A stretch of DNA of 56,812 nucleotides, the filler included, from Catajapyx aquilonaris (Eukaryota), in the NCBI GenBank assembly GCA_000934665.2. It is 2 parts of 2 records of this genome, joined end to end, with 100 filler letters (N's around TTAATTAATTAA, not from the genome) between each part and the next. Parts side by side here need not be neighbours in the genome. Positions count along the whole stretch, not along the records: positions 28,469 to 56,812 come from KZ539252.1; 1 more part is not named here. One strand, given 5' to 3'. Positions 28,549-56,812 of this stretch are shown here, one piece after another. Numbering within the stretch: position 1 is the first letter of the stretch; every line of letters starts with the position of its first letter. The translations under genes were made by a program, and so were the position numbers. Under the pieces are notes generated by a model, which had not been told where the DNA came from, made no database searches, and worked only from the letters and a program-made list of their open reading frames with translations.

Positions 28549-30128
28549 GAGTGCTATGTGGTTGTTGAAGGCGGAAAGGAAGAATCAGAAAAACTGCTGC
28601 AGCAGCGCTTTGACTACATCTTGTACACTGGTTCGGCTAATGTTGGCCGATTGGTTCATGCTGCTGCCACTAAACATCTTACGCCTACTACTCTGGAGTT
28701 GGGAGGAAAGAGGTTGGAAATGTTGTGTACTATCATAAGCCCAAAATCACGAGCACTGATATTTTATTTCAGTCACTTCACCTTTTGCCAATATGCGCTG
28801 AAAAAGTAATTTGTCACTGTCATAATGGACAGGGTTCCATTCACGATTGCAATGGCACTGTTTCTTTACCTTGCATTATTGAAGCTTCTTCCCACACGTA
28901 ATAAGTTAGACTATGACTAACGATGATGAACTTGTACAGCCCTGTATACATTGACGACTCAGCGGATTTAGAAGTAGCAGCTCGCCGACTGCTGTGGGCC
29001 AAATGTGTGAATTTGGGCCAGATATGCATCGCACCTGACTACGTTATGTGCAGTACCAAAGTGGAAAAACGCCTCGTAGAGCTAGCCCCCAAAATATTAA
29101 CTTCCATGTATGGACAGGAGCTGTCGAAATCTCCAGATCTCTGCAGGATAGTTTCTGACCCTCATTTCAAGTAAGAATATGTTTTTAAACACCTACAAAA
29201 TTATTATTTACGTCTTCTGAAGATATATGCTAAGCCTTAATTATTGATCATCATAATTATTATGGTATGAATACAGTTACTGCACACTCTTCTGTTTCAT
29301 AAAAGCATGTTTCAAATTCAAAATTGCAGGAGGGTAACAAATCTCCTGCAGAGCACCAAGGGTCAAGTGGCATTTGGAGGCAAGAGCGAACCGAACCAAC
29401 GGTGGGTGGAACCAACCATAGTTGTGGATGTCAAGGAAGACGATGCCCTTATGAAAGGTGAAATCTTCGGGCCGATTCTGCCCATAATGCGTGCCAATTC
29501 ACCCCAAGAAGCCATCCAGTTTATATCTAAAAGGTGCCTCATTGATTTATACGCACTTTCTTTCCTATATTTGTATCGAAAACGCTCTAAATTATTTTAT
29601 ATGCTTAAACTGATATAGTGAGACAGATGTTCAAAGTATGGGTAAATGATGAAACACCATAAGATTTTTTTAAATGCACGTTCTCTGTATTCATTTAGAG
29701 AGAAGCCACTGTGTATCTACGTGATGAGCGAATCAAACGATGTGCTGAAGTGCTTTGAGAATGGTACGTCTTCTGGACAGCTTTGCGTGAATGAGCTACT
29801 CCCTCAATTTTTGGTGGAACAGCTTCCATTTGGAGGTGTTGGCGAGAGTGGAATGGGAAGTTACCATGGACACCAATCATTCTTGACCTTCTCGCACCAG
29901 CGTCCTGTGGTCAAGAGAGACCTGTCTAAAATAGGAGAAGCCTTGGTCAAGGCTCGGTACCCGCCTTACCAGGACAAATCAAGGTTTAAGACTCTGCGTC
30001 GAATGGTGGCTTCTGCATGGCTGCTGGATTGGTCGAAAGTACCTCGTGCAATCATGATCGCTCTGGCAGCTGCATTTCTGTTTGCTGCTGGGTTCCTTCT
30101 ACGTCACTATGCTGGAAGCTTGTGGTAG
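28549..30128 (+). CDS. ALDH3: Aldehyde dehydrogenase family 3, membrane-anchored fatty aldehyde dehydrogenase (ALDH3A2-like); 5' exons missing
   Basis: Exons 28549-28712, 28940-29170, 29330-29533 and 29699-30128. Motifs [17 protein letters not shown] (general base Glu), GQICIAPDY (catalytic Cys), EIFGPILP and [17 protein letters not shown]-terminal hydrophobic anchor [24 protein letters not shown] at ~30286. Confidence 0.95.
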
Positions 30129-32138: not shown

Positions 32139-33491
32139 AGGGGAAGGAGGATGCCTATATTTATTGTAAAATAACATCTTACATTCAGTTCTTGCTGCGG
32201 AGGCTTCTCGGTGATAGTTGAAGCTTCGTATTACACCTGAAGTCTGCCCGTGGTACCATTGGAGGCAGCCAGACGGGGCTGTTTAATTTAATGTAGTGTA
32301 CAGGACATTATGCATTTTTAAAAATCACATTCCGACCGCTTTTAAAATGTTATTGCTCTGCATCAACAATCTTTATAATAGTCCTATACTTACCCTGGAG
32401 CTGACCAGGGCAGGCAATTTGAGTAATCTGAATATTCCAACGGCGTCCAACAGACGTGCCTGCTCCAACATCTACAGTCAGTATCAAAGGACCTCCATCC
32501 CGCTCAAGTGCTACATAAACTGCATAACCAGGAATGAGACCCTAATACGTGCAGAATAACTTTGTGATTTAATTTTAGACAAAATGGAGCAGGTTAATTT
32601 TATTTTTGAATACCTAATCATTACTTGTTGACTTACGATGTTGTCCACTGTTGAGTCCGCAGAGGCGAGGCACAGGGGAAGGTGTCCCAGATACCGTAAA
32701 AATATCGGTCCGGCAATTTCCCTCAGCATCTGGTGGAGCTATTACAAACACGTCCAGGTCCAATCGAACCTACTTGACAAAATGTGAAAAATCTGTCACC
32801 TGACTTTTGTGAGTTGGCCACATGCACACAATGGCTAAGCTATACTCACTTGACATACGGACGAAGAGCATGGCTGTATGGTTACCTTACATCGTTTCGC
32901 TCCTGTGAAGGTCTCCGGAAAGCCAGGGCTTGAAAAATAGGTGCTATTTACCTTGGTCTCCTGACCGCAAGTCACACTCACTGCAAATATACCCAACTTG
33001 TGTAAGGACATACAGTATTTGCATATTGTGGCTTACGAAGACAGCAGACTCCAGAAGCACACGCATGATGCCCAGAAGAAATTCCACCAAATTCGGAGCA
33101 ATCTTTGGCAGACAAACAAGTTCCTTTGCGATCAGAGCTAGCTTCACAAGGTTCTCGGGAATGACGGCGATGTTTGTGATGGTAGTGATATCTCCGGAAC
33201 AACCCTAGGACTACATGTAGAAGGCAGGGTTTTATACCATGTTTCAGAATAATATTGAGCTCATATACGGAAGCACATTGAGGGAAGCGCAACCCATCCC
33301 TTCCCCCAATACGAATGGGGTGACAAATTGACAATGTACCCCGATGTACCCATCTCCCCAGTTGCAGCCCCCCTGCTACAGTACTTACATCTTGGTTGAT
33401 GAAGTGTACTATCCGCGGCTACAGTCTGAGGGACTAGAAACACAGCAAATGCCAAAAAGGAAAGCCCCCAAATGAGCTGACCCATCTTCAT
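30339..33491 (-). CDS. Secreted arthropod CUB-domain protein (N-terminal Cys-rich module + CUB + CUB-like domain), ~390 aa
   Basis: Nine phase-consistent exons: 33491-33389, 33210-33037, 32980-32850, 32769-32637, 32519-32394, 32278-32183, 32041-31883, 31824-31687, 30451-30339. Signal peptide present. Motifs GTCLSAKDC..GVCC, STYFSSPGFP, VCQVRLD, PRLCGLNSGQHLY, RRWNIQITQIAC, APSGCLQWY, IRSFN, DCTADFVIIP, DRFCG, NRGFAILFRQLPC. An alternative upstream ATG is at 33551. Confidence 0.9.
32075..32138. repeat. (TAG)n microsatellite in CUB gene intron
   Basis: Direct observation; source of the spurious poly-L and poly-V ORFs. Confidence 0.95.
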
Positions 33492-36125: not shown

Positions 36126-37099
36126 TTTTTGGATTGAAGATTTTCCTTTACGTACGGTACTAGAAAAGAAAGTTAAGTTAGAAATAAAAGTCCAAAAAAT
36201 GTCAATATGTCTCGAAAACGCACGAAATACCAAATCCTGACAGCCTAACATCTTATATTTATGACAGAGGGTATCATTAATAATTATATTGGATCCGATC
36301 ATCGTAAACTACTGAAAAGAAAATTTATTTTTTGAGAACCAAATCACCATTGACCTTCACCTCACTACAGGTTGTTAAAGAAGGATAGGAAGTGCTCCCA
36401 GAGTGGTTAATTACTATGCTACATGTTTTGAATTCTTGTTATTTAACTTCTTCCATAGGCGGTCATAAATTGGGCGAGAAAAAAAGGGGGGAGGCACAAA
36501 TTGGCCGTGGATTTACACCTTAGTACTTTTTGAATGATCATAGGCCTAATCAAGATATATGGACAGGTGAAAAGGATTGCGCAGTTTCAGTGCAAAGGCA
36601 TGAAGCTAACCTACTTTATGGGCACTACCGCACGGAAATTACCTGCCTCCGGTCGTAATGATATTTCCGGATCATTACATAACATGTGTCTATAGCATAG
36701 AAACGGACAGCACAATATTGTTCTTCGATCATCCCACTTCAAGGTATAGAGCATCGATCGTTCCTTGCTCATCAGTGTCATCACATACCCTAAACGTGTA
36801 GTCTGCAACATGAATAGGATCTAATGATTCTTTTCATGCTACCATATAAGTAATACATAATATGCAGAAATGGGAGTTTGGCCTTCAATGGAACTCCGAC
36901 GCCCTTTTGATAACCTTGCATGGGAAGAAGTCCAGATGTAGCTTTGTTTGGGAGTAGCACCGGAACCACAAACCACGTTACACCCAGAGAATCATGCAAT
37001 GCCACAAAATAAATGATGACCTCAAAAGAGAATCGGAGAAGATCGTGACAACTATAAAAATTGCCTCTCCTCTGGATCCAGGGCTCTGGCATGCGGCAG

Positions 37100-37105
37100 T
37101 ATAAA
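37100..37105 (+). promoter_or_regulatory. Candidate TATA box of 4-Cys secreted protein gene A
   Basis: TATAAA ~130 bp upstream of the ATG; supported by position only. Confidence 0.35.
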
Positions 37106-37230
37106 GCAATATCACCTTGGCAGTGAATCGGCATTTTGCACTCGAGTTCATTTTAAAATTAACGAAATATACTGAATATTAGCAGGTTTTTTTCTGCTAA
37201 CTATTGTAGTGGAAATCTAGGTGCACAGTC

Positions 37231-38498
37231 ATGTACAAGGTGGCCGTAACTGCAGCTGTGCCTCTTCTATTGCTCCTCTTGTTATGTTCAGGTAGGTTCA
37301 TGTTCATTTTGAGTCACATACAATTGGCAGTTTTCTGTCGATATTACTTCACTACATACTAGAACTAACAGCAAAATGGTTGATGGAAGGTTGATTTTTA
37401 TCGGTGTGATCGTGTGGTGTGATTTATGGCCGTTTTCTCGAACAGTGGTTCAAATGTAAACCCGGTTCAAAGCCGGTTTAAACCCTTGACAACAGCCTAA
37501 CAACAATCAAATCAGGGATTAAACTGGCTTTGAACCCGGTTTACATTTGAACCACTGTTCGAGAAAACGGCCCTTAATCATTCAGTATGAATTATTCAGA
37601 CATCGATTTACTGCACTATTTTCATACCGTGTATAAATTATGTCAGTAATGTTTTATCAGCATAATACAGTCACACGGTGATATTTTCGTGTTTAATTTC
37701 AGCAACAAAAAGTTCCGAGATTGACGATCTTGAGGTGTCTGAAAGAGAATGCGAACGCAAATTTAAAGATGCCCTGTTGGAGATCAGCAAGGAAAAGACT
37801 GCAGCTGGAAAACTCAAATTATTCTGTCCGTAAGTAAAGATTCGGGCATTCAATAGCTTGCGAATTCGTGCTTGATATTTTACATCTTTGATCTTACAAA
37901 ATGTGTTGAGGGAAGGCAAAAAAAAAAAATCCTTGAGCAGAAGCATAATATAGTTATTGGTTAATATTATTCATGTTCGGGACAGGTATAATGCACAGAG
38001 TGATCCAAAATATTTTTCGCCGGTAAGCAGTTTACTTTTGCACGGTTACTCTTTTAATGTTTATCAAAAGTATTAGCTACTAATATTACGCCGAACTGAA
38101 TCATCCATTCAAGCTCTGGAGTGCTTAGTAGCATATACAGTACCGGTACTACTGTGTATATTATGGAATTTAACCATAATGAATGTTTCCACTTGATATC
38201 GCCTAGTAGGCCTATAAGTAGACTATGTCAATTATAGAATCAGCAGAGCGATGTATCTGTAAACCTGCTCTTTTGCCTTGCAGTGCGGCTTGGGAATTAC
38301 AAATGTGCATTAATAGCATAGTCTTCCTCCACCATGATATGAGATCATATGCCGACAAAATATTTCAAGATGCTAAGGTCAGTGTTATATTGCATATCAC
38401 ATAGCCTACAACTTCATAATAATTGATGTTTTTCTCCAACGTTATTTTCTACTTTACAGGCTCCATGTTCCGAAATCTGGTTTGGAAATAGCAACTAA
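37231..38498 (+). CDS. Small secreted 4-Cys protein, copy A (106 aa, complete)
   Basis: Exons 37231-37291, 37703-37829, 38284-38377 and 38460-38498 (intron phases 1,2,0; all GT-AG). Translation: MYKVAVTAAVPLLLLLLLCSATKSSEIDDLEVSERECERKFKDALLEISKEKTAAGKLKLFCPAAWELQMCINSIVFLHHDMRSYADKIFQDAKAPCSEIWFGNSN*. Supported by paralogs B and C. Confidence 0.88.
37428..37572. mobile_element. PIF/Harbinger-type MITE in gene A intron 1
   Basis: ~55-bp TIRs GGCCGTTTTCTCGAACAGTGGTTCAAATGTAAAC...GTTTACATTTGAACCACTGTTCGAGAAAACGGCC, flanked by TTA-like triplets. Confidence 0.8.
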
Positions 38499-40397
38499 GT
38501 GATTGTTATTATTTTGATTTTACCTGTAAATCCTGATAATTATCTTCCTGCTTTGCAGTATACAAAAATGATTGGTAGTTATGGTGTTCGTAATTATTAC
38601 ACCAGTAACTAGTAGGCGTACAGGATATAAATCCATTCCAGTGCAGGCTTGTTCCTTCCAGTTAGGAAATCAGAATTAATCAGAATTAATCAATCATGAT
38701 AGCATTCATATAATGTAGCGTGACAAGCACGTATAAGGTGTAGGTTCCGTGAACATTACTCCGTATATAATTTTTTCGAATGCTTTAAATGCGACGTTGT
38801 TTTAGTCTGCAAGTTTCATTATGCTTTATGAAGACGTGAAAGTCAGAACCACCAAAGTCATATTTTAGTCAAAAATGAGTTAGGCATTGTTTAATGCCCC
38901 CCTTGAAGTCGGCTATTTTATCATGGTCTGGTCAGAGGTTTGACATTTTAAAAACTTTACCGCCCCATATATAAAATTTTAATAGATCATCCCATAATAA
39001 ATAATGCAATAATGTGACTGATAGTTCTGCATTTCTGGTTTTCATTTGGTATACCATATATGCCTACTGCAAGACTAGTGTAAGAGTGTAGGCTACTGTA
39101 TGATTTCCCCTGGCAGACACCCGCAATGATTGAATGACAAACAATGCCACACCCAACACGTGTGGGTAGTAGACTATTAATGGCAATATACGAGTATAAG
39201 GATTGATTTGAACTGCACCAATGGTATTAGGATGGATGTGGTCTTCAGTAAATCGGAGGCCAAAGCAAAGTTCAGGAAAATCCTAAACATAACACAGCAT
39301 TATTGGCATGCATAACAGAGGCAAGGTGTGAATAGAGGAAAGAAAATTCTAACACCACTACTATTGAAGGTCTGACATAAAAATTGCGATTAAATTTATT
39401 AACCAATTTTAACGGCCTAACAGGAACGCCACACAATTATTAAATAATCAATTGAATTCTCCCCAGATAGAGTATAAGAAACTTCACTGTATATTCCATT
39501 TTCTCTTTCTTTCCCTCCCTACTAATTATCTCAGCTACGTCTTAAAATATTTTGCATGTTAAAGTTGCACAAGATTGTCTATTATTATTTTGCCATTCTA
39601 CCCGTTCTCACATCAACTAGCACTACCGTTAAGTGTGCTTGTGTGTGACGACCAATGTGACCTTCATCGGAAATTCTCCTTACATTATTGCTGATGCAAT
39701 AGTACAAAAATTATACTTCTCAAAATTTTGTCACCTCTCGATGTACTGTACGCTTTTCCTCTGTATGGACAAATAGCAGATTCCGAATAAATTACATTAG
39801 CAGGCATTATTGCGCGTACATTCAATGATTATGATGTTTGAACATTTTTTGGGGTGTTTTTCTTCATCAATATCATACTCCACCCCTGTAGTTCCTTTTC
39901 AACCCCTCCATCTTGTTACACTTGTGCCTTTCAATGCATATGGTATACATGTGTAGATCTTATAATTTGTGAACCTTACGTAATCCATTATCATGCGTAC
40001 ATAGAGGAGGTGCCCTTTAGCATACCAATAAAAAACAAGCTTGAGAAATGCCCGTGGAAAAAATGTTGCGTGAGTTTCCCTATAGCTGCAATAGATTCCT
40101 ACAGTCATACAGCTTATTTTATAACTGCCTGACGTGTTTGAAGAAATGCCCGTCCTTGGAAATGGCAGGACGATGGAATTTCTTGCAAGCAAGTGAAGCA
40201 TCACACACTATCGTACATTTGCCTCCGGATATCGGATCTTACGTGGATTGCTATTTTTCCAGCAGCCCAAATTGGATTCAATTAAAGGTAGGATTACTGG
40301 ATGTGTGTGCCTATATCATTTTGTTGAATCTGAACATCTCCATTCTTTTTCGTAGGTTATAATATTGATTTGCTTTTCTATTGCCGTTTGCCTAAAC

Positions 40398-42429
40398 ATG
40401 CTGGACATGAGAATTCTTCTGCTTGCCAGCTTCTTACTAACAGGTAGTATATGATTCACCAGTGTTTTTAAAATATGATTTTATGACTGTTAAAACTTAC
40501 CTGCTATTTTAGCTCAATGTCTTTGGTAATACAGGGTGGTCCAAGTTCAAGTGTCGTTTTATAACGGCGATTATTAGAAGCGCTTAACGATGACGTAGCA
40601 GCGACGTGTAAAATTGCCCACTTCGATGGCGCCGAAGATGCGCCGAAGTGGGACATTTTACGCGTCGCTACTACGTCATCGCAAAATCACTGCCATTAAT
40701 CGCCGTTATAAAACGACACTTGAACTTGGACCACCCTGTATATGTGTGTCAAAAGTTCTGAAAGTTTTATTACACTAAATATACCAATAAAAACATAATA
40801 TGATAATTAGATCATGCCTTATAGTAGTGCTGCACATAATTGTTAAGTTGTATCCATTAGTGTTTTATTATACAGTAATACTGCACAAAATAACTTAACG
40901 GGCATGTCACTACGGTATATAAATAGCGTACGATTTATTTTCAACAGCAATTCCAACATCTGAGTGCCAGGTGGATGAATTATCGGCTCTGGACGCCTGC
41001 AAAGTGGCATTCCAAACTGCTACTGGCCAATTTCTAGCTGAAAGTGATGCTGTCCAGAAAGCCAAGATTATTTGCCCGTAAGTTTTGCTATTTTTGAGGC
41101 CTTTAACCCTTTCGCCCCCAGCCACCTATAGAATCTATCGGCGATGAGAACTCGATCGCGCAGTATCAGCTAATACCCGACATCGCCTATAGTTTTCCGC
41201 TTCCTCTTAGCCGTGTGCTGAAGATACGAACAAGATCTTTTACAAATAATAACAGCCGTTCGTGGAAAACAATATGAATGTGTTGAAAACCTCCCATCAT
41301 AGAAGTCCCTAAATTAATTATTTCCAAAAATATCGCTGTAAAAACTCGAAATTATAGAGTACCGGTACTGCCGGCCGCGATGTTAGGCTCATTTAATTAT
41401 GAAATACGTTAAAATATACGGAATAACAATCTTGAGAAGCGTGGCAGATGAATTTGCTGACATTGTCGTACTTATCGAGAAACAAGTAAATTTTGTAGTT
41501 ATCCGAAGTGACAACAATTCAACAAAGTCTTCTGGCATATGGTTCTCAAGATTGTTACTGATTCCGTATATTTTAACGTATTACATAATTAAATCCTCCT
41601 AACAGTTAGTTAGTTAGTTTTAAAACTGATTGCTAAGGCAAACAATCCATATAGCTTCTTCGCTTACCCTCTCTTTAACCGTCTAGATTTGGACTTTTCA
41701 CCTGTAGGAACATTTTTCTAGGACCTCTTCTACTGTCAAAAGTGTGTTAATTCCTGGTTCACAGAAATCAACTCAATGTTAAATTCATATTTCCAATGTA
41801 TGGAATATACGATTCTTCACCTCGGGTCCACGTCCCTATGGGCAAGGTCCCCGGGCCATGAAATTACTCACTCAATCTGGAAACTGGAATTCCTGTTTTT
41901 TGAAGGATTCTTACCAAAGAAGATAGCCTGTTTTTGATAATGACCTATGCACATATATCAGTACAATATTTTCGAACAGGACATACATATACTCCGTGTA
42001 AATTATACTGTATACGACGAGTTCATGTATACTGTATATATGACATTAAACTGACACATTATTTTCATAATTTTAATGGGATCATTTACGATATGATATG
42101 AATCCATACATATTCCGCGTATGTAAAATAAAACCAACTGGCAATAATACGTAGTAAGTTATTGTGCTTAGCAAAATCAGTCAATAGCGATCTCGAGCAT
42201 TTTAAAGTTTAAAAAAATCACGGCCTCAAATGTCATGTTCCCTACTAACAATACGGTACCTCTACCAAATGAACTACTATACAACATTCCTGAAGTACAG
42301 TACGTGAATTTATTAAAGCATCTTAATTTTTAAAGGGCGGTAGAAGCTCTGAAGAACTGCATCGACAATGTTCCCGATCTCATACCCGGAGCAAAAGATC
42401 TGTCCATAGCTCTCTACGATCAAGTTAAG
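40398..42429 (+). CDS. Small secreted 4-Cys protein, copy B (last exon uncertain)
   Basis: Exons 40398-40443, 40948-41077 and 42336-42429 (same phases as A; exon 3 is again 94 nt). Translation: MLDMRILLLASFLLTAIPTSEC-QVDELSALDACKVAFQTATGQFLAESDAVQKAKIICPAVEALKNCIDNVPDLIPGAKDLSIALYDQVK. Candidate exon 4 at 42586-42630 (WCDQRHWIDGHILV*) has a weak acceptor. Confidence 0.82.
40532..40738. mobile_element. Tc1/mariner-type MITE in gene B intron 1
   Basis: TA-flanked long TIRs CAGGGTGGTCCAAGTTCAAGTGTCGTTTTATAACGGCGATTA...TAATCGCCGTTATAAAACGACACTTGAACTTGGACCACCCTG. Confidence 0.88.
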
Positions 42430-42853
42430 GTCAGTAATTATTCATTATATTTTCCATTGTTAAAGTATCATATAATTATATACCATAACATTATAGACTT
42501 TTTCATATGCCATGCCTTCCTTCAATTCTTGCTTTTTAAAACCATCTTATCACTTGACCATGTGGGTGAATTGCATTTTAAAAAGTGGTGCGATCAAAGA
42601 CACTGGATCGACGGTCATATTCTAGTGTAATATGATACATCACATCTTTTAGCACTTCAATCTCACAGTGCCCTAGTCCTTTTACATGGTCCTCAAATTT
42701 TTGCCATCAATGGTTGCATAGATTGAGAGAAAGGAGGTATATCCACGACTTATGGCATTCTTCTGATATTCACTTGATACAGCTTCAGCTTTTCCTGATG
42801 CAAATTGAAATTTAATTTGTCCTCAAATTAATTCAGGGTTTCTCTGTAAAGGT

Positions 42854-42965
42854 GTGTTCAGAAGCACGCGAGAACCTGTGTTTAGCGTCACGAGCGGTCG
42901 AATTGGGTGCGAGAAGATTAGCTTCTCGTTCTCGCTACTACCGATTCTCGCGAGCTTGTGAACAC
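42854..42965. mobile_element. Short MITE-like inverted repeat element
   Basis: gtgttcagaagcacgcgagaa ... ttctcgcgagcttgtgaacac; partial copy at ~49947-50035. Confidence 0.55.
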
Positions 42966-44352
42966 GTCTTAATACGATTTTCACTTGCTCTTCAGGAGGC
43001 GTGCGCTCCTCATTTCTGATGCCGGTCTTTCCCGAAAAGAAAAAGTGTCGCAACATCTGTACTAGTCGAATTAAGAGAAAAATAAAAATATTATAACCTA
43101 TATATGGCGAGAATGAATATGCATTTATTTTATTCAAACCAGTACCGAATATATTTCAGCCCTGTTCTATTTTTAGTGAGTAATCATGTCGCTATTTTGT
43201 GGACCATAATATGGTCATTAATGGAAACTATTACAATGAGAAAAACTAGATATCCTCCATGTAGGCCTACTCGTATATTTCCCAGTGCTACAGAATAATT
43301 TGCTATTACTAACCTTGAGGATAGTGATATACACTATGCTACTTGATGGACTGCCATCACTTGAATCATGTTACTGGTTGACAAGTGAAATCAGTGCCCA
43401 AGCCCAAGGTAACCTAGAAGAACAAGTGGCGACGAGTTGGGTATGCCAATTTTTTTATATGTCCACATAGAGGCAATAAAAACGGTAGGTGAGTCTACAC
43501 CAATTACGACGTAATGACGGACATAAGTAGCCTGCGGAAAAACTGCTTCGTTCCCGATGCATGCTCTGGCGCCTCTGCAGTCTGCTGCCTTTCTCTCTAA
43601 GGTCTTCAATTGGTCTTCGAGATTCACTTCATACAGGTCGACATCTTCCTCTCTAATTACATCAGTCCATCCTTCTCCCAGAATTGTTCGTGAGTTGATT
43701 TTATATAGACGTATAGTGAATATGTAATAATCCAGCCATAACTATAGTGTATATTCAGAACACCAGAAGTGATTAAACGCCATTAGACGCACTGTAGGCC
43801 TATACAATAATACGAACTTATTACTGATGCGACATACTGGATATTGTGTACTTAACTGATTTGGATAATGCTTACACTCTGTATAATAACACCAGTAGTA
43901 GAATATACTTTAATGAATGGCCTTTTACGAGCTCGTAAGTAACTTGATCTTAATATTCCGTAAGTTATATGTGTGTGCGCATTTTTCTTCTTTTGCTTTC
44001 CAGTAGTCCTGCTGTAGCCGAGTTTGCATTACCCGGATAAGCACAGAGCCCTTTATAATGCGCAATATGATACTCAAGAAGGCTCTCGTTATTCTGGCTG
44101 CTTTTATTCTAACAGCAGGTAAGTGACTCAAGACAAGAAGAGACCTTGAATTCATTTAGGCGTCATCACTCCCTCCTTATAAAGTCCATAATATAAGTAG
44201 TATACAAGTATGATCTTGCTGCAGAGTGGGCTATCTATATTTTTGAGTGACAAATTCTGGGAATTTTATAGACTATAATTAGGCTATAATTAGATCCTGT
44301 GCATTTGGTTCATTAGCCCACTTAAATATTACATGCTTTAAACTTGCTTTTT

Positions 44353-44423
<71 letters not shown>

Positions 44424-44425
44424 TA
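42880..44425. repeat. Recent duplication unit (upstream region + exon 1 of gene C), copied at ~49947-51395
   Basis: Long colinear high-identity match including an identical 61-nt exon 1 and the (CAT)n microsatellite (44353-44423 vs 51318-51393). Confidence 0.92.
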
Positions 44426-47400
44426 TTATTAAATTATTAATATATCATAGTTGTTAGTCCTATCCGTACCATTGTATACCTACTCAAGGCATGCTGAGAA
44501 GGACCATGCAATATTATTACGTAAGCACAGCACTTGATGAGGAGGAAAAGTTTTGTCTACTGTGTGTCAAGTCATACTGTATAACCACGTAAGCATGTGT
44601 TTGATGTTTGCATTTTTTGTAGCATTCTCGCTACAATATTATCTGCTTTCCACCAACATTATTTTTCATCGCTTCGATCGCAAAAATAATAGTAGGGTAG
44701 GAAATCTAAAAATATGTGTTTTGTGCATACCATTATAGGCTATATTAGTGTTTTCAAAACATGACGCTGTGTGTTTCAGAATTGAGCCCACATTCGCATA
44801 GATAGAAATGTTACAGATACACCTGTGAACTCACCTTCAGATGTGCCATGGAAATCATACAATATGCCTTAGGAAAGGCCATTTAATTGGCTTTCCAAGG
44901 GTGCATGTATGATGGTGTCATACCACTTCGCCCAAACCATTTTTGTCAAAAAAAAGAAAGAAAAAAAATCGTCCAAAGTAAAAAAAAACAACACCAAAAT
45001 ACAAAAGGTCGAGTTTCAGCACTGAAAGAAGACTACAGTATAAGACCTGGCTTTTAAGACCTGGCTGGGTTATAAGACTACAGTACAAGTATTGGAGGAT
45101 TTATGCTTGTTGTTATGTATGTTACTGATGACAACACTCAACTTAAAAAGGCTAGCACAAAATATCCAGCCGCTGGACCTTTGGATTTTGGACAAATATT
45201 TTTGGATGAAGTGTGGTTTGGACGATAATGTATAGGCTACTGGATGTAAATTCGAGTATACAAAAATGGTCTGGGAGCAGTGTTATGTAACCATAATGCA
45301 ACTAACTGCCAAAATTTAAGGTGAAGAGACAGGAGCGAGCGGAAATGAGCTTTCGCAAAAATTTTACTAATTTGGATGTGAGTTCATTATGAAATTCACC
45401 GTATGTCATGAATCAGTTTCAGTTGTCTCTGCGAAAAGCTTAGAAATCGATGATGTCCAGCCATCGGACGAAGTCTGCTTACGGGAATATAAAGAGGAAA
45501 TTGCTGGAGTTGATAAGGAATGTGACCCTGCCAGGAAGCTCCTAATAACCTGCCCGTGAGTATGGTAGTATGTTGTGGTGTACACACGCAATGTATGCAA
45601 AATACTCCCTATATGATCTAATATTAATACATGGTGATTCACTAGGTGGTCTCTCCAAAGAATCGACCATATTTTTCTTACCACTGTACCTAGAAACGTG
45701 ATGTTTGGTTTAATAGTTACCTTAGTTCATGGGAATGTAGCACCATTTGCAATAAATGCTGGAAATGACCTTCAACGACCTCCATACGCACTCGAACGCG
45801 ACTCAACTCAACGCTCCCTATTATCGAATATCCTAATCAGCATAATTATTATCCTCATAAATGGTCAGCATTGCTGCATTTATGTTGCTGTCCAAGTCTT
45901 CTGACATCGAGGCTCATTGTTGTAAGCACAACCTTTCAAATATCCCCATTCGGCGCTCTTTTGACACGTGGAAACAGGATACCTAGTTTCTTAATGTGAT
46001 AAACGTCAGTGACTTTTTCGGTCATTCCAGCAGCCTGTGCTTCCCTTTTAGATTTTTAAAATTCCTCGAAAGGAGATCATCTATTCATTTTTTATTTTTT
46101 TAAATTGTACCCCGTTCTCGGACCTTGGGCCCTTTTTAGGGGAGTGGGATACCACCATTTGTTGGAACCATATACTGATATATTTTTAGTTGTTCCAAGG
46201 GTAAGTAGGAGGGGATGTGCAATGTGCAAGTGCAATGTCGTATATTGGTCATTTTGTGAACTCCCCCGGGTGGATTAGTCTAGCGGTAATTTCCACCCGA
46301 GACGAAGCCAGAGGTGGCCCAACTCTGCACGAGATGAAGAGGGGAACCCCGGGCTGGGATCGAACCCGGGACCTTAACATCCGTGGGCGCGTGCGTTGCC
46401 GCAGCACCACTCCGCCTCCCCGGAGATCATATACTATTATACTATGGTATCGGTCAAAAACACTTGGTGCAGAAATCGTGACTATTAATGTCGATATGCT
46501 GTGGAGGGCCTTCGATAATAAGAAGTGTCGCGTCGAGTCACGTTCGAGTGCTCATAGAGGTCGTTGAAGGTCAATCACAGCATTTATTGCGAATGGTGCT
46601 ACATTTCAATGAATTAAGGTAATTTTTAAAACAAACATTACGTTTATAGGTAGAGCGGTGAGAAAAATATAGTCGATACTTTCGGGGAACTACCTAGTGA
46701 AATACCCCTCACTTGGGCCTGTATTAATTGCACCCTCATCCCAGGGCTGTCATCAAACTGCAAGTGTGTGTAAGCAGCGTCGCTTTCCTACATTCGGATA
46801 TTAAGACCTTTACCACTGAAACCTACAATCAAGCAAAGGTAGGGCTATTACATATTTTGAATCAAGTGTTACCCATGGCCTATAAATACAGGGAGTGGAA
46901 TTTTCGCCGTGCTACTAGTTATTACTTCTAACTTAGCAGTACCAGTGTAGTGCAATGGTACTGCTAAGTTAGCAGTAACTAGTAGTACGACGAAAATTCC
47001 AGCCAGTGTGTTTCCTATTAGTATGGTATGTCATCCGGTCGGCAGCATACATGTTGGCCCAAAACAAGTCGAAAGTGTAGGGGTTAAAAATGTGGAGGAA
47101 CCAAGTAGCTAGAGAACCAGACACATTGGCCTTCCCAGAGGCACATGCGAAAACACACTCGACATCTCATTGTGGGGAGATCGCCTGGCAGAAGGACTCA
47201 CTCCCCTTACAATAGTTGTCTAGGGAGCAGGATATGAGCGTGATAATCCCTACTGCAAAAGAAACGACCTCGTAAAATCCCACCAAGAATAATTAATTAT
47301 TATGAATACATGAGCATCACTGATGTCACTAAAAATACAACATCCACAACGAAAGTCGCTGAGCTTCACCAATTTGTGAACAACCTGGGACTGCACCACA

Positions 47401-49686
47401 AGACATTCACCATCAACATCTGGACACATCTTAGGTGTCCAGATGTTGATGATGAATGTTGGTGAAAGAAACAGATTTTAGAAAAGATTGGGAAGCATGG
47501 CTCTGTAATGACAGAGCCATGCTTCCCAAATCTTTTTCGGATAGATGCGTAAAATTCGCGACCACCACTTCCAATTCAACCCTACCCCTTTCCTTTGGTG
47601 GTAGTTAATTATTACAATAATCGCTAAATTAACACATTTCGTTTACGGGGAAATTTTCTAGAGAGGTAGAATCAATCTGCACAAATAACTACGTAGTTAA
47701 CCTTCCTCGCGACCCCAAAACGGAAAAGAACACAACAGCGGCGGATTTCCCATTAGGCACAGTATAGGCAGTGGCCTATAGGGGCGGCAGCGAGTTGCAA
47801 TAAATATATTTCTCAAATACAATAATAGTAAATTAACTAATTAAGGCGAGATCACAAAGAAAATCGATTTTTTGAGAGCTTGATTTGCCACTACAGGCAG
47901 AAAAGGTACCGTAATTGCCGAAGGGCGGCCGCCCTCTGGGCCCTGTAGGGGCGGCCGCGAGTTGCAATAAATAATATTTCTCAAATACAATTTCGATATT
48001 AAGGCTAGATCACAAAGAAAATCGAATTTTTGAGAGCTTGAATTTACCACTAGAGGCAGAAAAGGTAATTGCCGAAGGCGGCCGCCCTCTAGTCGGCCAT
48101 AACATTCAATATAATATTTTAAAATAAAATAACATTAAGGTATATAGTCTGGTGACCCCGGGTAGCTTGCCCCCTGGGGTAACTTGTTGTTTACTGCTAT
48201 CCTTTTACATATGTTTGCATTTTTAAGCGTCAGGCCGCGGCCGGGGGGGAGGGGCGGCCGTGTCTCACGTGCCTGAGGGCGGCCGGAGGGGTAAATCCGG
48301 AGCTGCACACAGAACAGTGCAATGTGCATGTGACAAGAAGTTCATTTCCAGGGACAAGACATGCCGCCCCCACCTTCTTGCCGCCCGGGGCAGGTGCCCC
48401 CGTTTGCCCCCCCCCTCCCCCCCCCCCCTAGATCCGGCCCTGCACACTGACCCAAGCAACGGAAAGTGTAAGCGTAGTCCGATTTCACCCCATGCGTCTG
48501 AAGTCGCCTCATTCTAGGGTACATTGCCGCCCAGATGACAATACGTTAATGAGAAACACATACCCTGTCTAAGCATTCTGGTTTGTTGCTCTATAACTAT
48601 TGTCCTGCCCGAGAAAAAAAGGATGTTATGCTGTTTCATCCTGTCTTCTACAAAATAATTAAACACCAATAAGTTTTAGTACAGTGTGAAAATTTCTAAT
48701 TCCTTCCTGATTTTGAAACACAAACTTTAAAATCAATTTATATTTGGCACTTTCTTTCTGCACAGTAACCTGATGGGATAGAAACACCTGAATCATATCA
48801 GAANNNNNNNNNNNNNNNNNNNNNNNNNNNNNNNNNNNNNNNNNNNNNNNNNNNNNNNNNNNNNNNNNNNNNNNNNNNNNNNNNNNNNNNNNNNNNNNNN
48901 NNNNNNNNNNNNNNNNNNNNNNNNNNNNNNNNNNNNNNNNNNNNNNTTAATGAGAAACACATACCCTGTCTAAGCATTCTGGTTTGTTGCTCTATAACTA
49001 TTGTCCTGCCCGAGAAAAAAAGGATGTTATGCTGTTTCATCCTGTCTTCTACAAAATAATTAAACACCAATAAGTTTTAGTACAGTGTGAAAATTTCTAA
49101 TTCCTTCCTGATTTTGAAACACAAACATTAAAATCAATTTATATTTGGCACTTTCTTTCTGCACAGTAACCTGATGGGATAGAAACACCTGAATCATATC
49201 AGAAGGATGCCTTCATACACTTTACTGTACAAATAATCGCAATTCATGTAAACTATTCCATTATAGGAACATTGCCTGAACCACTGGTATTCGTGAATCG
49301 TCATCGCCATCTACTGCAGCGCTGGACCTGTTACTGATTAGTTCCAATATCAATATTAGATAATTATGTTATGATAGCATTGCAAAATAATTGCAAAATA
49401 ATGACTCAATAAATCAGCAATTATTTGATTGTGATGCCTGCATCATAGATTAATGTGAGTATAAGTGCAATTATACAATAACTTCTTACTAAGAACAGCT
49501 GTGATTATTTTTCTTCATGAAGTCACCTTCGCATCCTGAAAGAAATATGTAGAAAGTTCATGAACATATGCCATGACCTATTGCAGTATGCCTGTATCAG
49601 CACATGCGTAAATGCAACTAATAACAGAAATATTACTGATTCACAGTTTGCATCTTATATTATCATAGGCGTGTGTCAAGCTGTAA
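44058..49686 (+). CDS. Small secreted 4-Cys protein, copy C
   Basis: Exons 44058-44118, 45417-45555 (alternative acceptor 45423), 46745-46838 (94 nt) and probable exon 4 at 49669-49686 (ACVKL*). Translation: MRNMILKKALVILAAFILTAVSVVSAKSLEIDDVQPSDEVCLREYKEEIAGVDKECDPARKLLITCPAVIKLQVCVSSVAFLHSDIKTFTTETYNQAKACVKL*. 27/71 ungapped identities with copy A over exons 2-3 (manual count). Confidence 0.82.
45638..46701. mobile_element. Non-autonomous DNA transposon with ~190-bp imperfect TIRs (CACTA-like termini) in gene C intron 2
   Basis: ttcactaggt..aatcgaccatatttttc..gtagcaccatttgcaataaatgctg..gaccttcaacgacctc..gcactcgaacg is mirrored at 46510-46701. No clear TSD. Confidence 0.75.
46240..46421 (-). 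mobile_element. tRNA-derived SINE (family 1), nested inside the TIR element
   Basis: Reverse complement gggaggcggagtggtgctgc..cccacgg..cgggttcgatcccagc..tagacta..ggggga..cacaaaatga is homologous to 718-905. Confidence 0.7.
47736..48442. mobile_element. hAT-like MITE(s), composite, with internal ~140-bp tandem duplication
   Basis: CAGCGGCGGATTT start; ends AAATCCGGAGCTG (48305) and AGATCCGGCCCTG (48442); 47780-47945 is repeated at 47945-48095. Confidence 0.5.
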
Positions 49687-51026
49687 CCAGGTAAGTGCAT
49701 AATAATACAGCACATGTCCTCTGAAACCCTGTGAGCTGAATGTATTTAGAATTAATGTTACAACTGATATGCAATCTACTCCTCAGGAGCAATTTTGTTT
49801 TAGATCACGCCTGTTCATATTAATATTTTCAGGAAAAATTAGGATCAACGTAACTGACGCAACAAACCTTGCGAAGTTGCGTCAGTTACAACTATTATAT
49901 CTCCACTATTCCATGGCTCTGCTGCTATCTCGAATTCGAGAAATATTAGCCTTACGAGCGGTCGAATGGAGTGCGAGAAGATTAGCTTCTCGTTCTTGCT
50001 ACGACACGACCTATTCTCGAGAACTTGTGAACATATCTTAATACGACTTCCACTTGAGGCGTGCGCTCCTCACTTCTGATGCCGGTATTTCCCGAAAAGA
50101 ACAAGTGGCGCAACATCTAGCTGCACTAGTCGAATTAAGAGAGAAATACAAATAAACATATTATAACCTATGTTCACAATATATGGCGAAAATGAATATG
50201 CAACTATTATAGGGGCTACAATGAGAAAAACTTGATTTCCTCCTATGTACTCGTATATTGCCCAGTGCTACAGAATAATTTGCTATTACTAACCTTGAGG
50301 ATAGTGATATACAGTATGCTACTTGATGGACTGCCAGCACTTGAATCATATTACTGGTTGACAAGTGAAATTAGTACCCAATCCCAAGGTAACCTAGAAG
50401 AACAAGTGGCGACGAGTTCGGTATGACAATTTTTTAAAATATGTCCACATGTATAGAGGCAATAAAAACAGTTGGTGAGTCTACACCAATTACGACGTAA
50501 TGACGGACACAAGTAATCTGCGGAAAAACTGTTTCGTTCCGAATGCATGCTCAGAAGCCTCTGCAGTCTGCTGCCTTTCTCTCCAAGGTCTTCAATTGGT
50601 CTTCGAGATTCACTTCATACAGGTCGACATCTTCCTCTCTAATCACATCTGTCCATCCTTCTCCCAGAATTGTTCGTGAGTTGATTTTATATAGACGTAT
50701 AGTGAATATGTAATAATCCAGCCATAACTATAGTGTATATTCAGAACACCAGAAGTGATTAAACGCCATTAGACGCACTGTATACAATAATACGAACTTA
50801 TTACTGCGACATACTGGATATTGTGCACTTAACTGATTTGGATAATGCTTTCACTCTGTATAATAACACCAGCAGTATACTTTAATGAATGGCCTTTTAC
50901 GAGCTCGCAAACTTGATCTTAATATTCCGTAAGTTATATGTGTGTGTGCATTTTTCTTCTTTTGCTTTCCAGTAGTCCTGCTGTAGTCGAGTTTGCATTA
51001 CCCGGATAAGCACAGAGCCCTTTATA

Positions 51027-51087
51027 ATGCGCAATATGATACTCAAGAAGGCTCTCGTTATTCTGGCTGCTTTTATTCTAACAGCAG
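51027..51087 (+). CDS. Small secreted 4-Cys protein, copy D: signal-peptide exon only (remaining exons beyond the window or lost)
   Basis: Identical to exon 1 of copy C with an intact gtaagt donor. Intron-1 homologous segments follow at 53640-53793, 56048-56120 and 56153-56277. Confidence 0.7.
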
Positions 51088-51317
51088 GTAAGTGACTCAA
51101 GACAAGAAGAGACCTTGAATTTATTCATTTAGGCGTCATCACTCCCTCCTTATAAAGTCCATAATACAAGTAGTATACAAGTATGACCTTGCTGCCGAGT
51201 GGGCTACGATCTGTATTTTTGAGTGACAAATTCTGGGAATTTTATAGGCAATAATTAGATCCTGTGTATTTGGTTCATTAGCCCACTTAAACATGGCATG
51301 CCTTAAATTGGATTCTT

Positions 51318-51385
<68 letters not shown>

Positions 51386-51690
51386 TATCATCATAATGAT
51401 GCTAGCGAGAGTGCTACAAAAAATGCGAACATCAAACACATATGGGTAAATAGTGAAAAGACTTGCAATATCATATATCTCAGCTAATTTCTGGACCTAA
51501 TATAACATCTGAAAACCAGACAACATGCAAAGAAATAAGATTGCAACTTGCGGAATATGGGGCACATAACAAATATGTAATGAAAAAATTCTTTCATATT
51601 TTTTTTAGGTCACAAGAGTGACATGTCACGTCCGTGGCTTGTCCCAACCTCACTACCGTAGTTTTGTCAATTTTTATGCAAGGCGTAAGG

Positions 51691-53182: not shown

Positions 53183-53477
53183 TATATACAGCTGTAGATA
53201 CAGCATTTTTATAAATTATAAAAAAATGTGAAATATAAGTCCACGACTCTACTGGTTTCTCCACCAAGTGGCAGGTAATGTTTTCCGGAGATTTTGGTCA
53301 AAGCTACCATCCAGCGGTCAATGTTACCCCATCTGACGGTAATAACTATTTTTATTTTAAAAAAATCTTTAAAGCACCTTTACATTTTTTATTTTTTTGA
53401 AATGAAATTACACATTTTTTCACTATTGACCCATATGCTTACGTGGTTATGCAGTACCGGTAGTCTATGACTTGACA

Positions 53478-53753
53478 CACAGTAGACAAAACTTTTCCTT
53501 CTCATCAAGTGCTTACGTAATAATATTGAATGGACCTTCTCAGCATGCCTTGAGTACAATGGTACGGGTAGGACTAACAACTATATTTAATCATTTCATC
53601 ATCATCATTATGATAGCCTATGATGATGATTGTGAAATGATTAAATATAGTTGTTAGTCCTACCCGTACCATTGTACTCAAGGCATGCTGAGAAGGTCCA
53701 TTCAATATTATTACGTAAGCAATTGATGAGAAGGAAAAGTTTTGTCTACTGTG
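53478..53753. repeat. Near-perfect ~130-bp-arm palindrome made by inverted duplication of intron sequence
   Basis: 53478-53610 is the reverse complement of 53621-53753. The same sequence is single-copy and in forward orientation at ~44445-44565. Confidence 0.92.
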
Positions 53754-53793
53754 CACGGAGGAGTGTACTGTGTGTCAAGCCATACTGTATAAC

Positions 53794-56047
53794 CATGTCC
53801 ATATTTCCCAATAGGCAAAGTAGGCAACTGCCTAGCTAGAGCGGCAAATTTGGGAGCGAAACTGTCTCTGGTACTGCGAAAAAAAATTGTGGAAGTTGTA
53901 CCTTAGTTTGTATGTACAGTATACAGTAAAAAATATGCAATTTAAAAATCATTCAATTAGTGTAAGGGTTTTATTTCCATAAATACCGTCACACGTGGTG
54001 ACATTGTGCAGCGCAATTTTTTGGGCAGCAGTTTACTTGGAGCAGTCGTAAACTATCATTTAGGCATGTTTCACTACATTGCGGGATGGTCAAGGTTGGC
54101 GATGACAAGCACGTGACGAGTAAAATTCGCCGTTTGTTCTGATAAGGCCCGTAAAATAAATCTTTGTTAATGTTTTTATTTTCGCCAAGTGTTGCATTGG
54201 TATAGCGTTGGTTGGTGTGATTGGATGATTGTTTCTCGTGAGCAGTAGGTCCAATAGAAAGGTGGCGTTTGGTAAATGTATTTTATATACTGTATATTAA
54301 AAACTGCATTCACTTGAGCTCTTGCCTGTCTTGTAAGCACAGGCAAAGTAGAGCGTTTTATTTTATTTCACTTTTGTAAAAATTGGCAGCGACTTTTTTT
54401 TTCCTGGCAATAATCTGTAAGTACTGGGTTCACAAAGAACGGGTTAAATGGGCTAGCCTACTTCGATTACGATGTTATTGAAGGTTGAAATACGACTGGG
54501 CTTTTTAAATCCGGATTTGTGCTTGAACTATGACGAAATCAGTAAAAAAAAGTGCACTTGACGGGGTGAGAGTGTGCCACTGTGTTTTCCCCACTATTTC
54601 ACTGATTTTCATGCGTACCAGTGATGGGACAAGTTTAACGAGTTTACGTGAAGAAGATCGGTCAGAAGCTTTGGCAGAAATCAATATTTTTTTGATGAAA
54701 AAAAGTGCAAAATTTAATGTAGCCAAAGCTACCAGAGGAGCTGTGGTACAGATAAGATCAGGCGAGATTGTGCCACGGAATTTTTTAAATATCCACCTTC
54801 CATTAGCACATAGAAATTATTTTCACACATGAAGTAATATGTGAGATGTGCAGCAATGTTGTGTATTATTATTAATGTATCCGGAAAGTAAGGTCCGTTT
54901 ATTTATTAGAAAACCACAATGCACCCCCAGAATTTTTATTTGTACATCTGAAATCAATAACTGTCTACTTTTTTCAAAATAGTTTCCAAACAAATCGAGG
55001 CATTTTTCATTGAGTTGCACAAGATTTTGTATGCCTATGTCATAGAGCCTGCCGGCGCAAGCCATTTCAGCGATCCCTGAAGGCTGGATTGCAACTCTTC
55101 GTCATCGTCAACCTTCTGCTTTCCAAGGATAGGTGGTAATCTCTAAGATCTAAATCCCAGGTGATCGAACAATTCGCACGTGAATTATTGCGTAGCGGCA
55201 TGTAGAGTTCCTGGTGTTTTCTTGTGCGACAATGCCCGCCTGTCTACTGCCTTGCTTACTGAAACCCAGCCACAACAATTCGAGTGCGAATTGTTCGATC
55301 TTCAGGGATTCAGAGCCTAGCGATTACCACCTGTCCATGGACAGGAAGAAATGCCTTGCAAAGTAGAAGGTTGACCATGACGAGGAGTTGCAATCCAGCG
55401 TTCAGGGATCGCGCAAATTTAATGGCTGGCGCGGCAGACCTCTATGACATAGGCATACAAAATCCTGTGAAACTCAATGAAAAATGCCTCGATTGATTTG
55501 GAAACTATTTTGAAAAAAAGGAGACAGTTGTCGATATCAGATGTGTAAAAAAACTTTTGGGGGCCCATTGTCAGTGGTTTTTCTAATAAATAACGGACCT
55601 TACTTTCCGGATGCGCTAATATAATTAGTTCCAAGATATCAATATTATTCTTGTTTGCTCGTAAGAAAAACCTCAAAATATGGGGCCGTGCAAATACCAC
55701 GTGACCGATTTTAGGCCACTTTTTGACCCCCCCTCCTCGCCCCAGTGACCGACCGTGGTATCCATTGGTACCCCCCCCCCCNNNNNNNNNNNNNNNNNNN
55801 NNNNNNNNNNNNNNNNNNNNNNNNNNNNNNNNNNNNNNNNNNNNNNNNNNNNNNNNNNNNNNNNNNNNNNNNNNNNNNNNNNNNNNNNNNNNNNNNNNNN
55901 NNNNNNNNNNNNNNNNNNNNNNNNNNNNNNNNNNNNNNNNNNNNNNNNNNNNNNNNNNNNNNNNNNNNNNAAAGGGGGGGGGGGGGGGGGGAGGCGGCGG
56001 CAGATGACCAACTGCCTACCAGCGAAGGAAGTGTACATACGGCCCTG
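53794..56047. mobile_element. hAT-like insertion (~2.2 kb) interrupting gene D intron 1
   Basis: Termini catgtccatat / atacggccctg (consensus CAGGGCCGTAT), with imperfect 8-bp TSD tgtataac/tgtatata. The empty site tgtataaccacgtaagc is at ~44578. Confidence 0.65.
54879..55612. mobile_element. Foldback element, ~310-330-bp diverged inverted arms
   Basis: atccggaaagtaaggtccgtt...gatcgaacaattcgcac is mirrored by gtgcgaattgttcgatc...aacggaccttactttccggat. Confidence 0.85.
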
Positions 56048-56319
56048 TGTATATAACCACGTAAGCGTATGTGTTTGATGTTTGCATTTTTGGTAGCACT
56101 CTCGCTACAATATTATCTGCACAAATCCACTAGTGCCATATCAGTTCTGTGCCTGGACCTTTGGATTTTGGACAAATATTTTTTGGATGAAGTGTGGTTT
56201 GGACGAGAATGTATACTGGATGTAAATTCGAGTGGACAAAAATGGCGGTCTGGGCGCAGTTTTATGTAACCATAACGTAGGCCTAATAGTCCGGACCCTA
56301 AGCGCAAAAATCAGGCCTA

Positions 56320-56812
56320 ACCTTGCATTTTGGGATAAGAAGGTGCCACTTGGCACATATGTTCCTTAGGCCTATAGGAGCAATTCCAGAGTTGCAGGCA
56401 ACTGATCGGCCCCTTAGGTCACGAGTTATGCGGTGTTGCCAACATGGCCGGGGATGACCTGAGCGCTTTTAACGTTGCATTTGGTGATAAGAAGGTGCCG
56501 CTTGGCACATATGTTCCCTAGGCCTGTAGGAGTCGTTTGAGACATGGCGGCACTTGATCGGCTCCTTAGGTCAGGAGTTATGCGGTGTTGCCAACCTGGT
56601 CCTGGACCTAAGCGTTTTGTACCATTTTTAACTTTGCATTTTGGGATAAGAAGGTGCCACTTGGCACGTATGTTCCTTAGGCCTATAGGAGCAATTTCAG
56701 AGTTGCAGGCAACTCATCGGCCCCTTAGGTCACGAGTTATGCGGTGTTGCCAACCTGATCAGGGAACTAAGCGTTTTAACTCGGCACTTTGTGATGAGAA
56801 GGTGCCACTTGG
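56320..56812. repeat. Satellite DNA, ~150-160-bp monomer, runs off the window end
   Basis: gat(a/g)agaaggtgcc(a/g)cttgg recurs at 56334, 56486, 56645 and 56793 (periods 152, 159, 148). Confidence 0.92.

Follow-up and report, generated by a model that had tools for sequence, protein, structure and literature searches.

A transcribed tandem array of genes for small, predicted secreted four-cysteine proteins in Catajapyx aquilonaris

Gene array and shared architecture

We analysed a stretch of 56,812 nucleotides (nt) of the genome of Catajapyx aquilonaris (GenBank assembly GCA_000934665.2), called the window here; it is eukaryotic DNA with ~36–49% G+C. Its part from KZ539252.1 carries a tandem array of genes for small, predicted secreted proteins with four conserved cysteines. 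Three neighbouring genes, A (37231–38498), B (40407–43019) and C (from 44058), are found on the + strand and are followed by the first coding exon of a fourth gene, D. They share one layout: a signal-peptide exon, an exon 2 terminating in Cys-Pro, whose Pro codon is interrupted by a phase-2 intron, an exon 3 of 94 nt and a short last exon. The intron phases are 1/2/0 in A, B and C.

Two scans recover this architecture. The exon-2 scan covered the whole window on both strands for open frames of at least 30 codons ending in TGY-CC directly before GT. It gave 10 matches, three of which are the exon 2 of the family, with ends at 37829, 41077 and 45555. The exon-3 scan covered 36000–56700 on the + strand for open phase-2 frames of 94 nt between AG and GT. 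Among its 14 candidates three (38284–38377, 42336–42429 and 46745–46838) combine a Pro-Ala start, a Cys as residue 9 and a terminal Lys. The original prediction, made from the sequence of this stretch, had proposed three spliceable genes plus the first exon of a fourth, with just these intron phases, the Cys-Pro end of exon 2 and the 94-nt exon 3. The models and scans bear out both proposals, as do the splice joints of A and B described below.

The cysteine register is equally regular. In three-way alignments the Cys pair of exon 2 and the Cys of exon 3 are invariant. The gaps between the four cysteines are 24/8/25 in A and B, and 24/8/24 in C if the candidate last exon at 50059 is used. The spacing from the first to the third Cys is thus 24/8 in all three genes, as originally proposed.

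Transcription and splicing

The public runs listed are four DNA runs from one sample and a further run, X5, whose kind is unrecorded. Contigs of X5 and of the DNA run X1 were compared with positions 37000–44300. All eight joints in the X5 contigs are of the GT..AG type, and none of the eight occurs in X1, which shows two joints only, both non-canonical. The eight joints correspond to the three introns of A, the intron 40288–40355 in the 5' untranslated region (5'UTR) of B, the three coding introns of B, and an intron at 43690–44003 upstream of the C start codon. Every coding intron proposed for A and B is therefore recovered in X5, and none in X1. Because the X5 contigs skip exactly their introns, genes A and B are transcribed and spliced as first proposed.

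An X5 contig of 2072 nt is the full spliced mRNA of A, joining 37035–37286, 37698–37829, exon 3 and 38458–40053. Another of 580 nt is the B mRNA, with five exons between 40136 and 43111. Both stop 26–30 nt past an AATAAA. The B contig settles the last exon of B and hence its fourth Cys. This residue had been regarded as secure in A and dependent on less certain last exons in B and C; the joint 42429>42996 now makes it firm in B, while the last exon of C is still uncertain. The joint 43689>44004 may derive from C or from D, because the D copy of this region is near-identical.

The genes are tightly packed. The A mRNA contig ends at 40053 and that of B starts by 40136, leaving a gap of ~80 nt; the B mRNA ends at 43111, and the next 5'UTR exon ends at 43689.

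Divergence among the paralogues

The window was searched on both strands by tblastn with A and B in full and with C by its exon 1 only. A matches C in exon 2 (E = 7e-8) and in exon 3 (E = 5e-5), and no other cross-matches are found among the three genes. The A and B queries detected no further copies in the remaining 36 kb. A and C are 40% identical over 42 amino acids (aa) in exon 2 and 35% identical over 31 aa in exon 3. Overall identities in the three pairs are 34/100 (A and C), 23/92 and 32/93, and the first agrees with the 27/71 counted for A and C in the original prediction.

The proportions of nonsynonymous and synonymous differences (pN/pS) in the three pairs are 0.41/0.83, 0.51/0.87 and 0.42/0.69. 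Since pN is lower than pS in all three, the reading frames are under constraint. With pS of 0.69–0.87 the synonymous sites are saturated, so that dN/dS is unusable. Saturation also means that A, B and C are old paralogues, and their earlier description as fast-diverging goes beyond what these data show.

Gene D, duplication and the last exon of C

Part of the array is present in two copies (Table 1). The first copy carries the last exon of B together with the 5'UTR exon and the first coding exon of C. The first coding exon of D is identical to that of C at 114 of 115 positions, and exon 1 of C recurs by tblastn at 51027–51086 with 20 of 20 residues. More of C intron 1 is repeated downstream of D exon 1, at 53466–53795 and 56052–56275, the last recurring piece being 45173–45296, which equals 56153–56275. 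The splice sites of D are intact as far as they are visible, and the rest of the gene falls past the end of the window. Judged by these identities, D is a young duplicate of C that arose by a recent duplication.

The duplication also bears on the last exon of C. The copy of the B last exon that follows C (50059–50079) lacks 9 nt, among them the acceptor confirmed in B. Use of a weaker AG located three bases further along would yield the short C-terminus listed in Table 1, with a Cys3–Cys4 gap of 24. Another candidate for this exon, at 46940–46972, would give a gap of 25. It is less likely because it lies inside an inverted repeat with 40-nt arms.

Several sequence features were noted around C and D. 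The repeat just mentioned is a near-perfect hairpin at 46908–46992 (40-nt arms, 5-nt loop), located 70 nt 3' of C exon 3 and containing the candidate at 46940–46972. The intron 1 piece found at 45173–45296 and 56153–56275 holds a short open frame ending in EVWFG, which resembles the C-terminus of A (tblastn E 6.7–16); the likeness is probably due to chance, although the piece could also be what is left of an A-like last exon. A tandem satellite with ~150-nt units (three copies, 83–94% identity) occupies 56318–56812, up to the window end, where D exon 2 would be expected.

Table 1. Coordinates of the gene models, exons and duplicated units in the window
Feature	Position	Strand	Description	Evidence
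Gene A coding model	37231–37291, 37703–37829, 38284–38377, 38460–38498	+	106 aa	
Gene B coding model	40407–40443, 40948–41077, 42336–42429, 42996–43019	+	94 aa	
Gene C coding model	44058–44118, 45423–45555, 46745–46838	+	last exon uncertain	sequence
Gene A first exon	37035–37291	+	5'UTR from at least 37035; ATG 37231; 61 nt coding; phase-1 donor	sequence and X5
Gene A exon 2	37703–37829	+	127 nt; Cys1; GT..AG joints 37291>37703 and 37829>38284	X5
Gene A exon 3	38284–38377	+	94 nt; Cys3	joints in X5
Gene A last exon	38460–40053	+	12 codons; Cys4; stop 38496–38498; ~1.55 kb 3'UTR; AATAAA 40027	X5
Gene B 5'UTR exon	40136–40287	+	GT..AG joint 40287>40356	X5 contig
Gene B first coding exon	40356–40443	+	ATG 40407; short signal peptide; 37 nt coding; phase 1	sequence and X5
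Gene B exon 2	40948–41077	+	130 nt; extra N-terminal Cys, then Cys1	sequence and X5
Gene B exon 3	42336–42429	+	94 nt; Cys3	sequence and X5
Gene B last exon	42996–43111	+	7 codons, EACAPHF; Cys4; stop 43017–43019; 3'UTR to ~43111; AATAAA 43081	joint 42429>42996 in X5
Gene C first coding exon	44004–44118	+	ATG 44058; 61 nt coding; phase 1; 5'UTR exon upstream ends 43689	joint 43689>44004 in X5
Gene C exon 2	45423–45555	+	133 nt; Cys1; extra Cys (KECDP); alternative acceptor 6 nt upstream	sequence
Gene C exon 3	46745–46838	+	94 nt; Cys3	sequence
Gene C candidate last exon	50059–50079	+	ACAPHF-stop	sequence
Gene D first coding exon	50973–51087	+	ATG 51027	sequence
Duplicated unit, first copy	42882–44423	+	previous gene's last exon, intergenic DNA, 5'UTR exon, first coding exon, start of intron 1; ends at (ATC)n run	
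Duplicated unit, second copy	49946–51394	+	92% identical over 1202 aligned nt; 83% over first 218 nt	

Protein properties and predicted structure

The N-termini of A, B and C look like signal peptides of secreted proteins: they begin with charged residues, continue into a hydrophobic core and have small residues ahead of the likely cleavage site. Signal peptides and cleavage sites were assigned by eye from the sequence. With the cuts read in this way, the mature proteins have 85, 81 and 78 aa (8.6–9.8 kDa), isoelectric points of 5.32, 4.39 and 5.00, and net charges of -3 to -6. None of the three mature proteins contains an N-glycosylation sequon. A fifth Cys is found in B, 10 residues before Cys1 and near the mature N-terminus, and in C, within KECDP; A has none. 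The original prediction had pointed to the residue in C as a possible site of dimerization. The residue is indeed there, but it is not specific to C.

AlphaFold2 models were obtained from alignments of the single exons. The exon-2 alignment gives helices at 7–29 and 33–40 (pLDDT 65), and the exon-3 alignment gives helices at 2–11 and 17–30 (pLDDT 88). Four helices in total are thus predicted, two per exon. A helical, two-disulfide bundle had been suggested from the periodicity of the sequence, and the helical part of that suggestion agrees with these models of single exons. Cys1 falls midway along helix 1 and Cys2 where helix 2 ends; helix 3 contains Cys3, and Cys4 directly follows helix 4. 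The near-equal arms of 24 and 25 residues would suggest antiparallel packing with the bridges Cys1–Cys4 and Cys2–Cys3. To be noted, Cys3 is seven residues into helix 3, which would make the pairing Cys1–Cys3 and Cys2–Cys4 possible as well. The exon-2 and exon-3 peptides modelled as a two-chain complex gave a score of 0.02 against a mark of 0.34, which counts neither for nor against.

Searches for relatives

The searches for relatives used single exons of 31–47 aa, for which even an orthologue of ~60% identity would already fall under the thresholds. No Pfam family, including PBP_GOBP, SapB_1 and SapB_2, was matched by the six exon peptides at E up to 10. The PDB sequence-profile searches produced a single chance match, of exon 2 to YopX (E = 0.75), and none for exon 3, and Foldseek found no PDB match for the 31-aa exon-3 model. 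An hmmsearch with the exon-2 profile against 1.84 billion protein representatives returned no match at E up to 0.001. A word-index search for longer proteins yielded 23 candidates with A exon 2, none at E up to 1, and 650 with the alignment of the three exon-2 sequences, none of them within an E of 10. In metagenome contigs, 141 pattern matches were seen and none was upheld by tblastn; the exact exon-2 30-mer had no match. The ESM Atlas returned for exon 2 only unnamed and coiled-coil-type clusters of low recognition (1450), and for exon 3 no usable match. In a narrow literature search, no family with the pattern C-x24-C-x8-C-x25-C was seen to be described.

Because every query was one exon of this length, the absence of relatives is weak evidence. 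The proposal of an unrecognised family holds in so far as no described family was matched, but the low power of single-exon queries limits what this says.

Surrounding sequence

Upstream of the array, at 29271–30128 (+), exons of an aldehyde dehydrogenase are found (Aldedh, E = 1.9e-12), and at window coordinates before the array, 24415–25347 (+), exons of a gene of the tubulin-tyrosine-ligase family (Pfam TTL, E = 2e-13). An open frame of 146 codons at 32978–33418 (-) has a cysteine-rich stretch that ends in GVCC and gives no Pfam match; this frame may belong to a further gene for a small, cysteine-rich secreted protein, as one of its exons.

The introns of A and B contain inverted repeats resembling miniature inverted-repeat transposable elements (37420–37580, 40529–40741 and 41381–41604), with arms of 44–67 nt and 91–93% complementarity. 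The word depth of the DNA run X1 is 1,500 to 56,000 in the bins of these repeats versus ~37 elsewhere, so that they must be present in very high copy number in the genome. In intron 2 of C, the G+C-rich segment 46270–46420 resembles the core of a short interspersed element derived from tRNA; scans of the window for tRNA (ARAGORN) and with Rfam gave no match, and neither made a call on this segment. Two stretches of 258 nt, 48546–48803 and 48947–49204, are 100% identical and flank 143 N. This pair looks like an assembly artefact at the gap.

Interpretation

Taken as a whole, the original prediction is partly supported. We read the locus as a tandem array that is transcribed and comprises at least three old paralogues (A, B and C) and a young duplicate, D; these genes would belong to a lineage-restricted family of arthropod type. 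Each gene, with its four coding exons, would encode a signal peptide and an acidic protein of ~9 kDa. Exons 2 and 3 would each supply two of its four short helices, and the four conserved cysteines, which most likely pair as two disulfides, would tie these into one compact domain. Outside the cell such a soluble protein could bind or transport small hydrophobic ligands or lipids, and the paralogues may differ in specificity. The original prediction had named pheromone or odorant carriers and venom, salivary or seminal proteins as candidate roles. We hold the chances of this reading, a lineage-restricted secreted four-helix, two-disulfide family that probably serves as carrier or lipid binder, to be evenly balanced.

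Several points weigh against it. The reads were compared over 37000–44300, and exons 2–4 of C, farther downstream, are modelled from the sequence. The likeness of B to A by tblastn is not significant (E = 4.1, in the exon-3 region), and the membership of B rests on gene structure and cysteine register. The exon-2 model is of moderate confidence. The odd number of cysteines in B and C would allow covalent dimers or partners and is not what simple monomeric carriers would show. A known family could remain hidden behind queries as short as those used here. Finally, we infer the carrier role by analogy with odorant-binding proteins (OBPs), chemosensory proteins (CSPs) and saposin-like proteins, which are likewise small, acidic, disulfide-stapled, helical and encoded in tandem, and we also infer disulfide formation and connectivity, the compact bundle and ligand binding.

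A bolder form of the same idea is possible, although doubtful. A–D would constitute an undescribed family with its own four-helix, two-disulfide fold, an independent extracellular carrier of small hydrophobic molecules that arose in this arthropod lineage alongside OBP, CSP and NPC2. In this form the fifth Cys of B and C would enable covalent homo- or heterodimers and thereby combinatorial pockets.

The alternative of a saposin-like (SAPLIP) fold without its outermost disulfide appears unlikely to us. It would combine four helices with nested Cys1–Cys4 and Cys2–Cys3 bridges and would imply action on lipids or membranes, for example lipid extraction and presentation. The gaps 24/8/25 are near those of the inner four saposin cysteines, and the size of the domain (~80 aa), the saposin-like acidity and the four predicted helices all fit. 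A precedent for a saposin-like fold concealed from sequence searches is described for the aphid bicycle proteins (bioRxiv 10.64898/2026.03.27.712717). Nevertheless, neither SapB_1 nor SapB_2 was matched by the six exon peptides at E up to 10, and PDB profiles offered only the YopX match (E = 0.75). Cys1 sits in the middle of helix 1 and not at a helix start, and a Cys2–Cys3 bridge across a tight turn would be awkward when Cys3 is as far as seven residues inside helix 3.

It is also quite unlikely that the proteins are secreted signals or effectors, for instance helical ligands of the cytokine or hormone type, antimicrobials, or components of venom, saliva or seminal fluid. Such roles would also suit small, disulfide-stabilised secreted proteins from deeply diverged tandem arrays; the unpaired fifth Cys of B and C could give covalent dimers, as in some ligands, and the transcripts have long UTRs and separate promoters. 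Yet the translations contain no dibasic processing sites, the net charge of -3 to -6 argues against a cationic membrane-lytic antimicrobial peptide, and no hormone, cytokine or toxin family in Pfam was matched by the six exon peptides. An extremely diverged and shortened branch of hexapod OBPs, comparable to the Minus-C forms, is very improbable. Acidic, helical, predicted secreted proteins from tandem genes with a C-x8-C element would be in its favour. Against it, none of the six exon peptides matches PBP_GOBP at E up to 10, four helices are predicted in 78–85 aa versus six in ~120 aa, and the gaps 24/8/25 without C-x3-C fit neither the classic nor the Minus-C signature.

Small secreted carriers influence how arthropods communicate chemically, handle lipids and interact with hosts. 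To our knowledge, only few such carrier families are known, namely OBP, CSP, NPC2 and saposin-like proteins. The array may add a member to this set or represent a very divergent branch of one of them. Gene annotation probably misses the family because its genes are split into tiny exons, and the family offers a clean test of the reach of structure prediction in the classification of orphan secreted families. Lineage-specific small secreted families are common in animal genomes, and if this is merely another one, it would be ordinary.

Comparison with known families

Classic OBPs have the spacing C2-x3-C3 and C5-x8-C6 and six helices in ~120 aa. Minus-C OBPs keep C1, C3, C4 and C6, spaced ~30/38/18, in a six-helix domain of the same length. 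The proteins of the array resemble OBPs (PF01395) in being small, acidic, predicted secreted and helical, in their multi-exon tandem genes and in the C-x8-C element. They differ from classic OBPs in their four conserved cysteines at 24/8/25, without C-x3-C, and they are ~40 residues shorter, with four predicted helices instead of six. The same gaps, together with the size of 78–85 aa, also set them apart from the Minus-C forms in spacing and length. According to PMC4145409, the mark of an OBP is a set of six cysteines that form three interlocked bridges, and four-cysteine C-minus forms exist; the six cysteines are not found here.

CSPs have four cysteines in two neighbour-to-neighbour bridges and genes mostly of two exons, with an intron after residue 45, according to PMC12940638. 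The likeness to the CSP/OS-D/4CSP proteins, as these are described in PMC12940638 and PMC4145409, lies in the four conserved cysteines of small, soluble, helical, secreted arthropod proteins. The genes of the array instead have four coding exons, their single exons give no Pfam match, and the spacing 24/8/25 excludes the two small adjacent loops of CSPs. By the defining cysteine patterns the family is outside OBP and CSP, in accord with the original prediction that it fits neither classic OBPs nor CSPs. The family may be a concealed branch of the saposin-like or OBP-like proteins, or it may have a separate fold.

PMC13357843 describes hairpin loop peptides (HLPs) with six mirror-symmetric cysteines, two long helices, a 15-residue loop and ~64 mature residues. 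The array proteins share with HLPs and plant alpha-hairpinins, as presented there, a mirror-symmetric cysteine spacing that would suggest antiparallel, disulfide-stapled helices (PMC13357843). Four cysteines, four predicted helices, a middle gap of 8 residues and a length of 78–85 aa distinguish them from HLPs.

The saposin-like proteins, among them saposins, NK-lysin, granulysin and amoebapores, offer a helical domain of ~80 aa with four to five helices, a similar register of the inner cysteines and a comparable acidity. Saposin-like domains have six cysteines in three nested disulfides, with outer C-x2-C and C-x5-C pairs and inner four cysteines spaced ~27/10/24; granulysin is an example with two disulfides. 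In the saposin fold the helices fold back on each other, and helix 1 is linked to the helix at the C-terminus. In the array proteins the outer C-x2-C ... C-x5-C pair is absent, the conserved cysteines number four, and Cys1 is placed mid-helix.

Bicycle proteins have paired CYC motifs and many micro-exons, and they are larger than the products of A, B and C. According to bioRxiv 10.64898/2026.03.27.712717, the aphid bicycle proteins are fast-evolving and secreted, with saposin-like folds that only structure revealed and that are invisible to sequence searches. They are helical, disulfide-bearing products of multi-exon genes in large, diverged families without sequence similarity to known proteins. 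The array proteins resemble them as predicted secreted, helical products of diverged multi-exon genes whose cysteines would form disulfides, and their single exons matched no known family.

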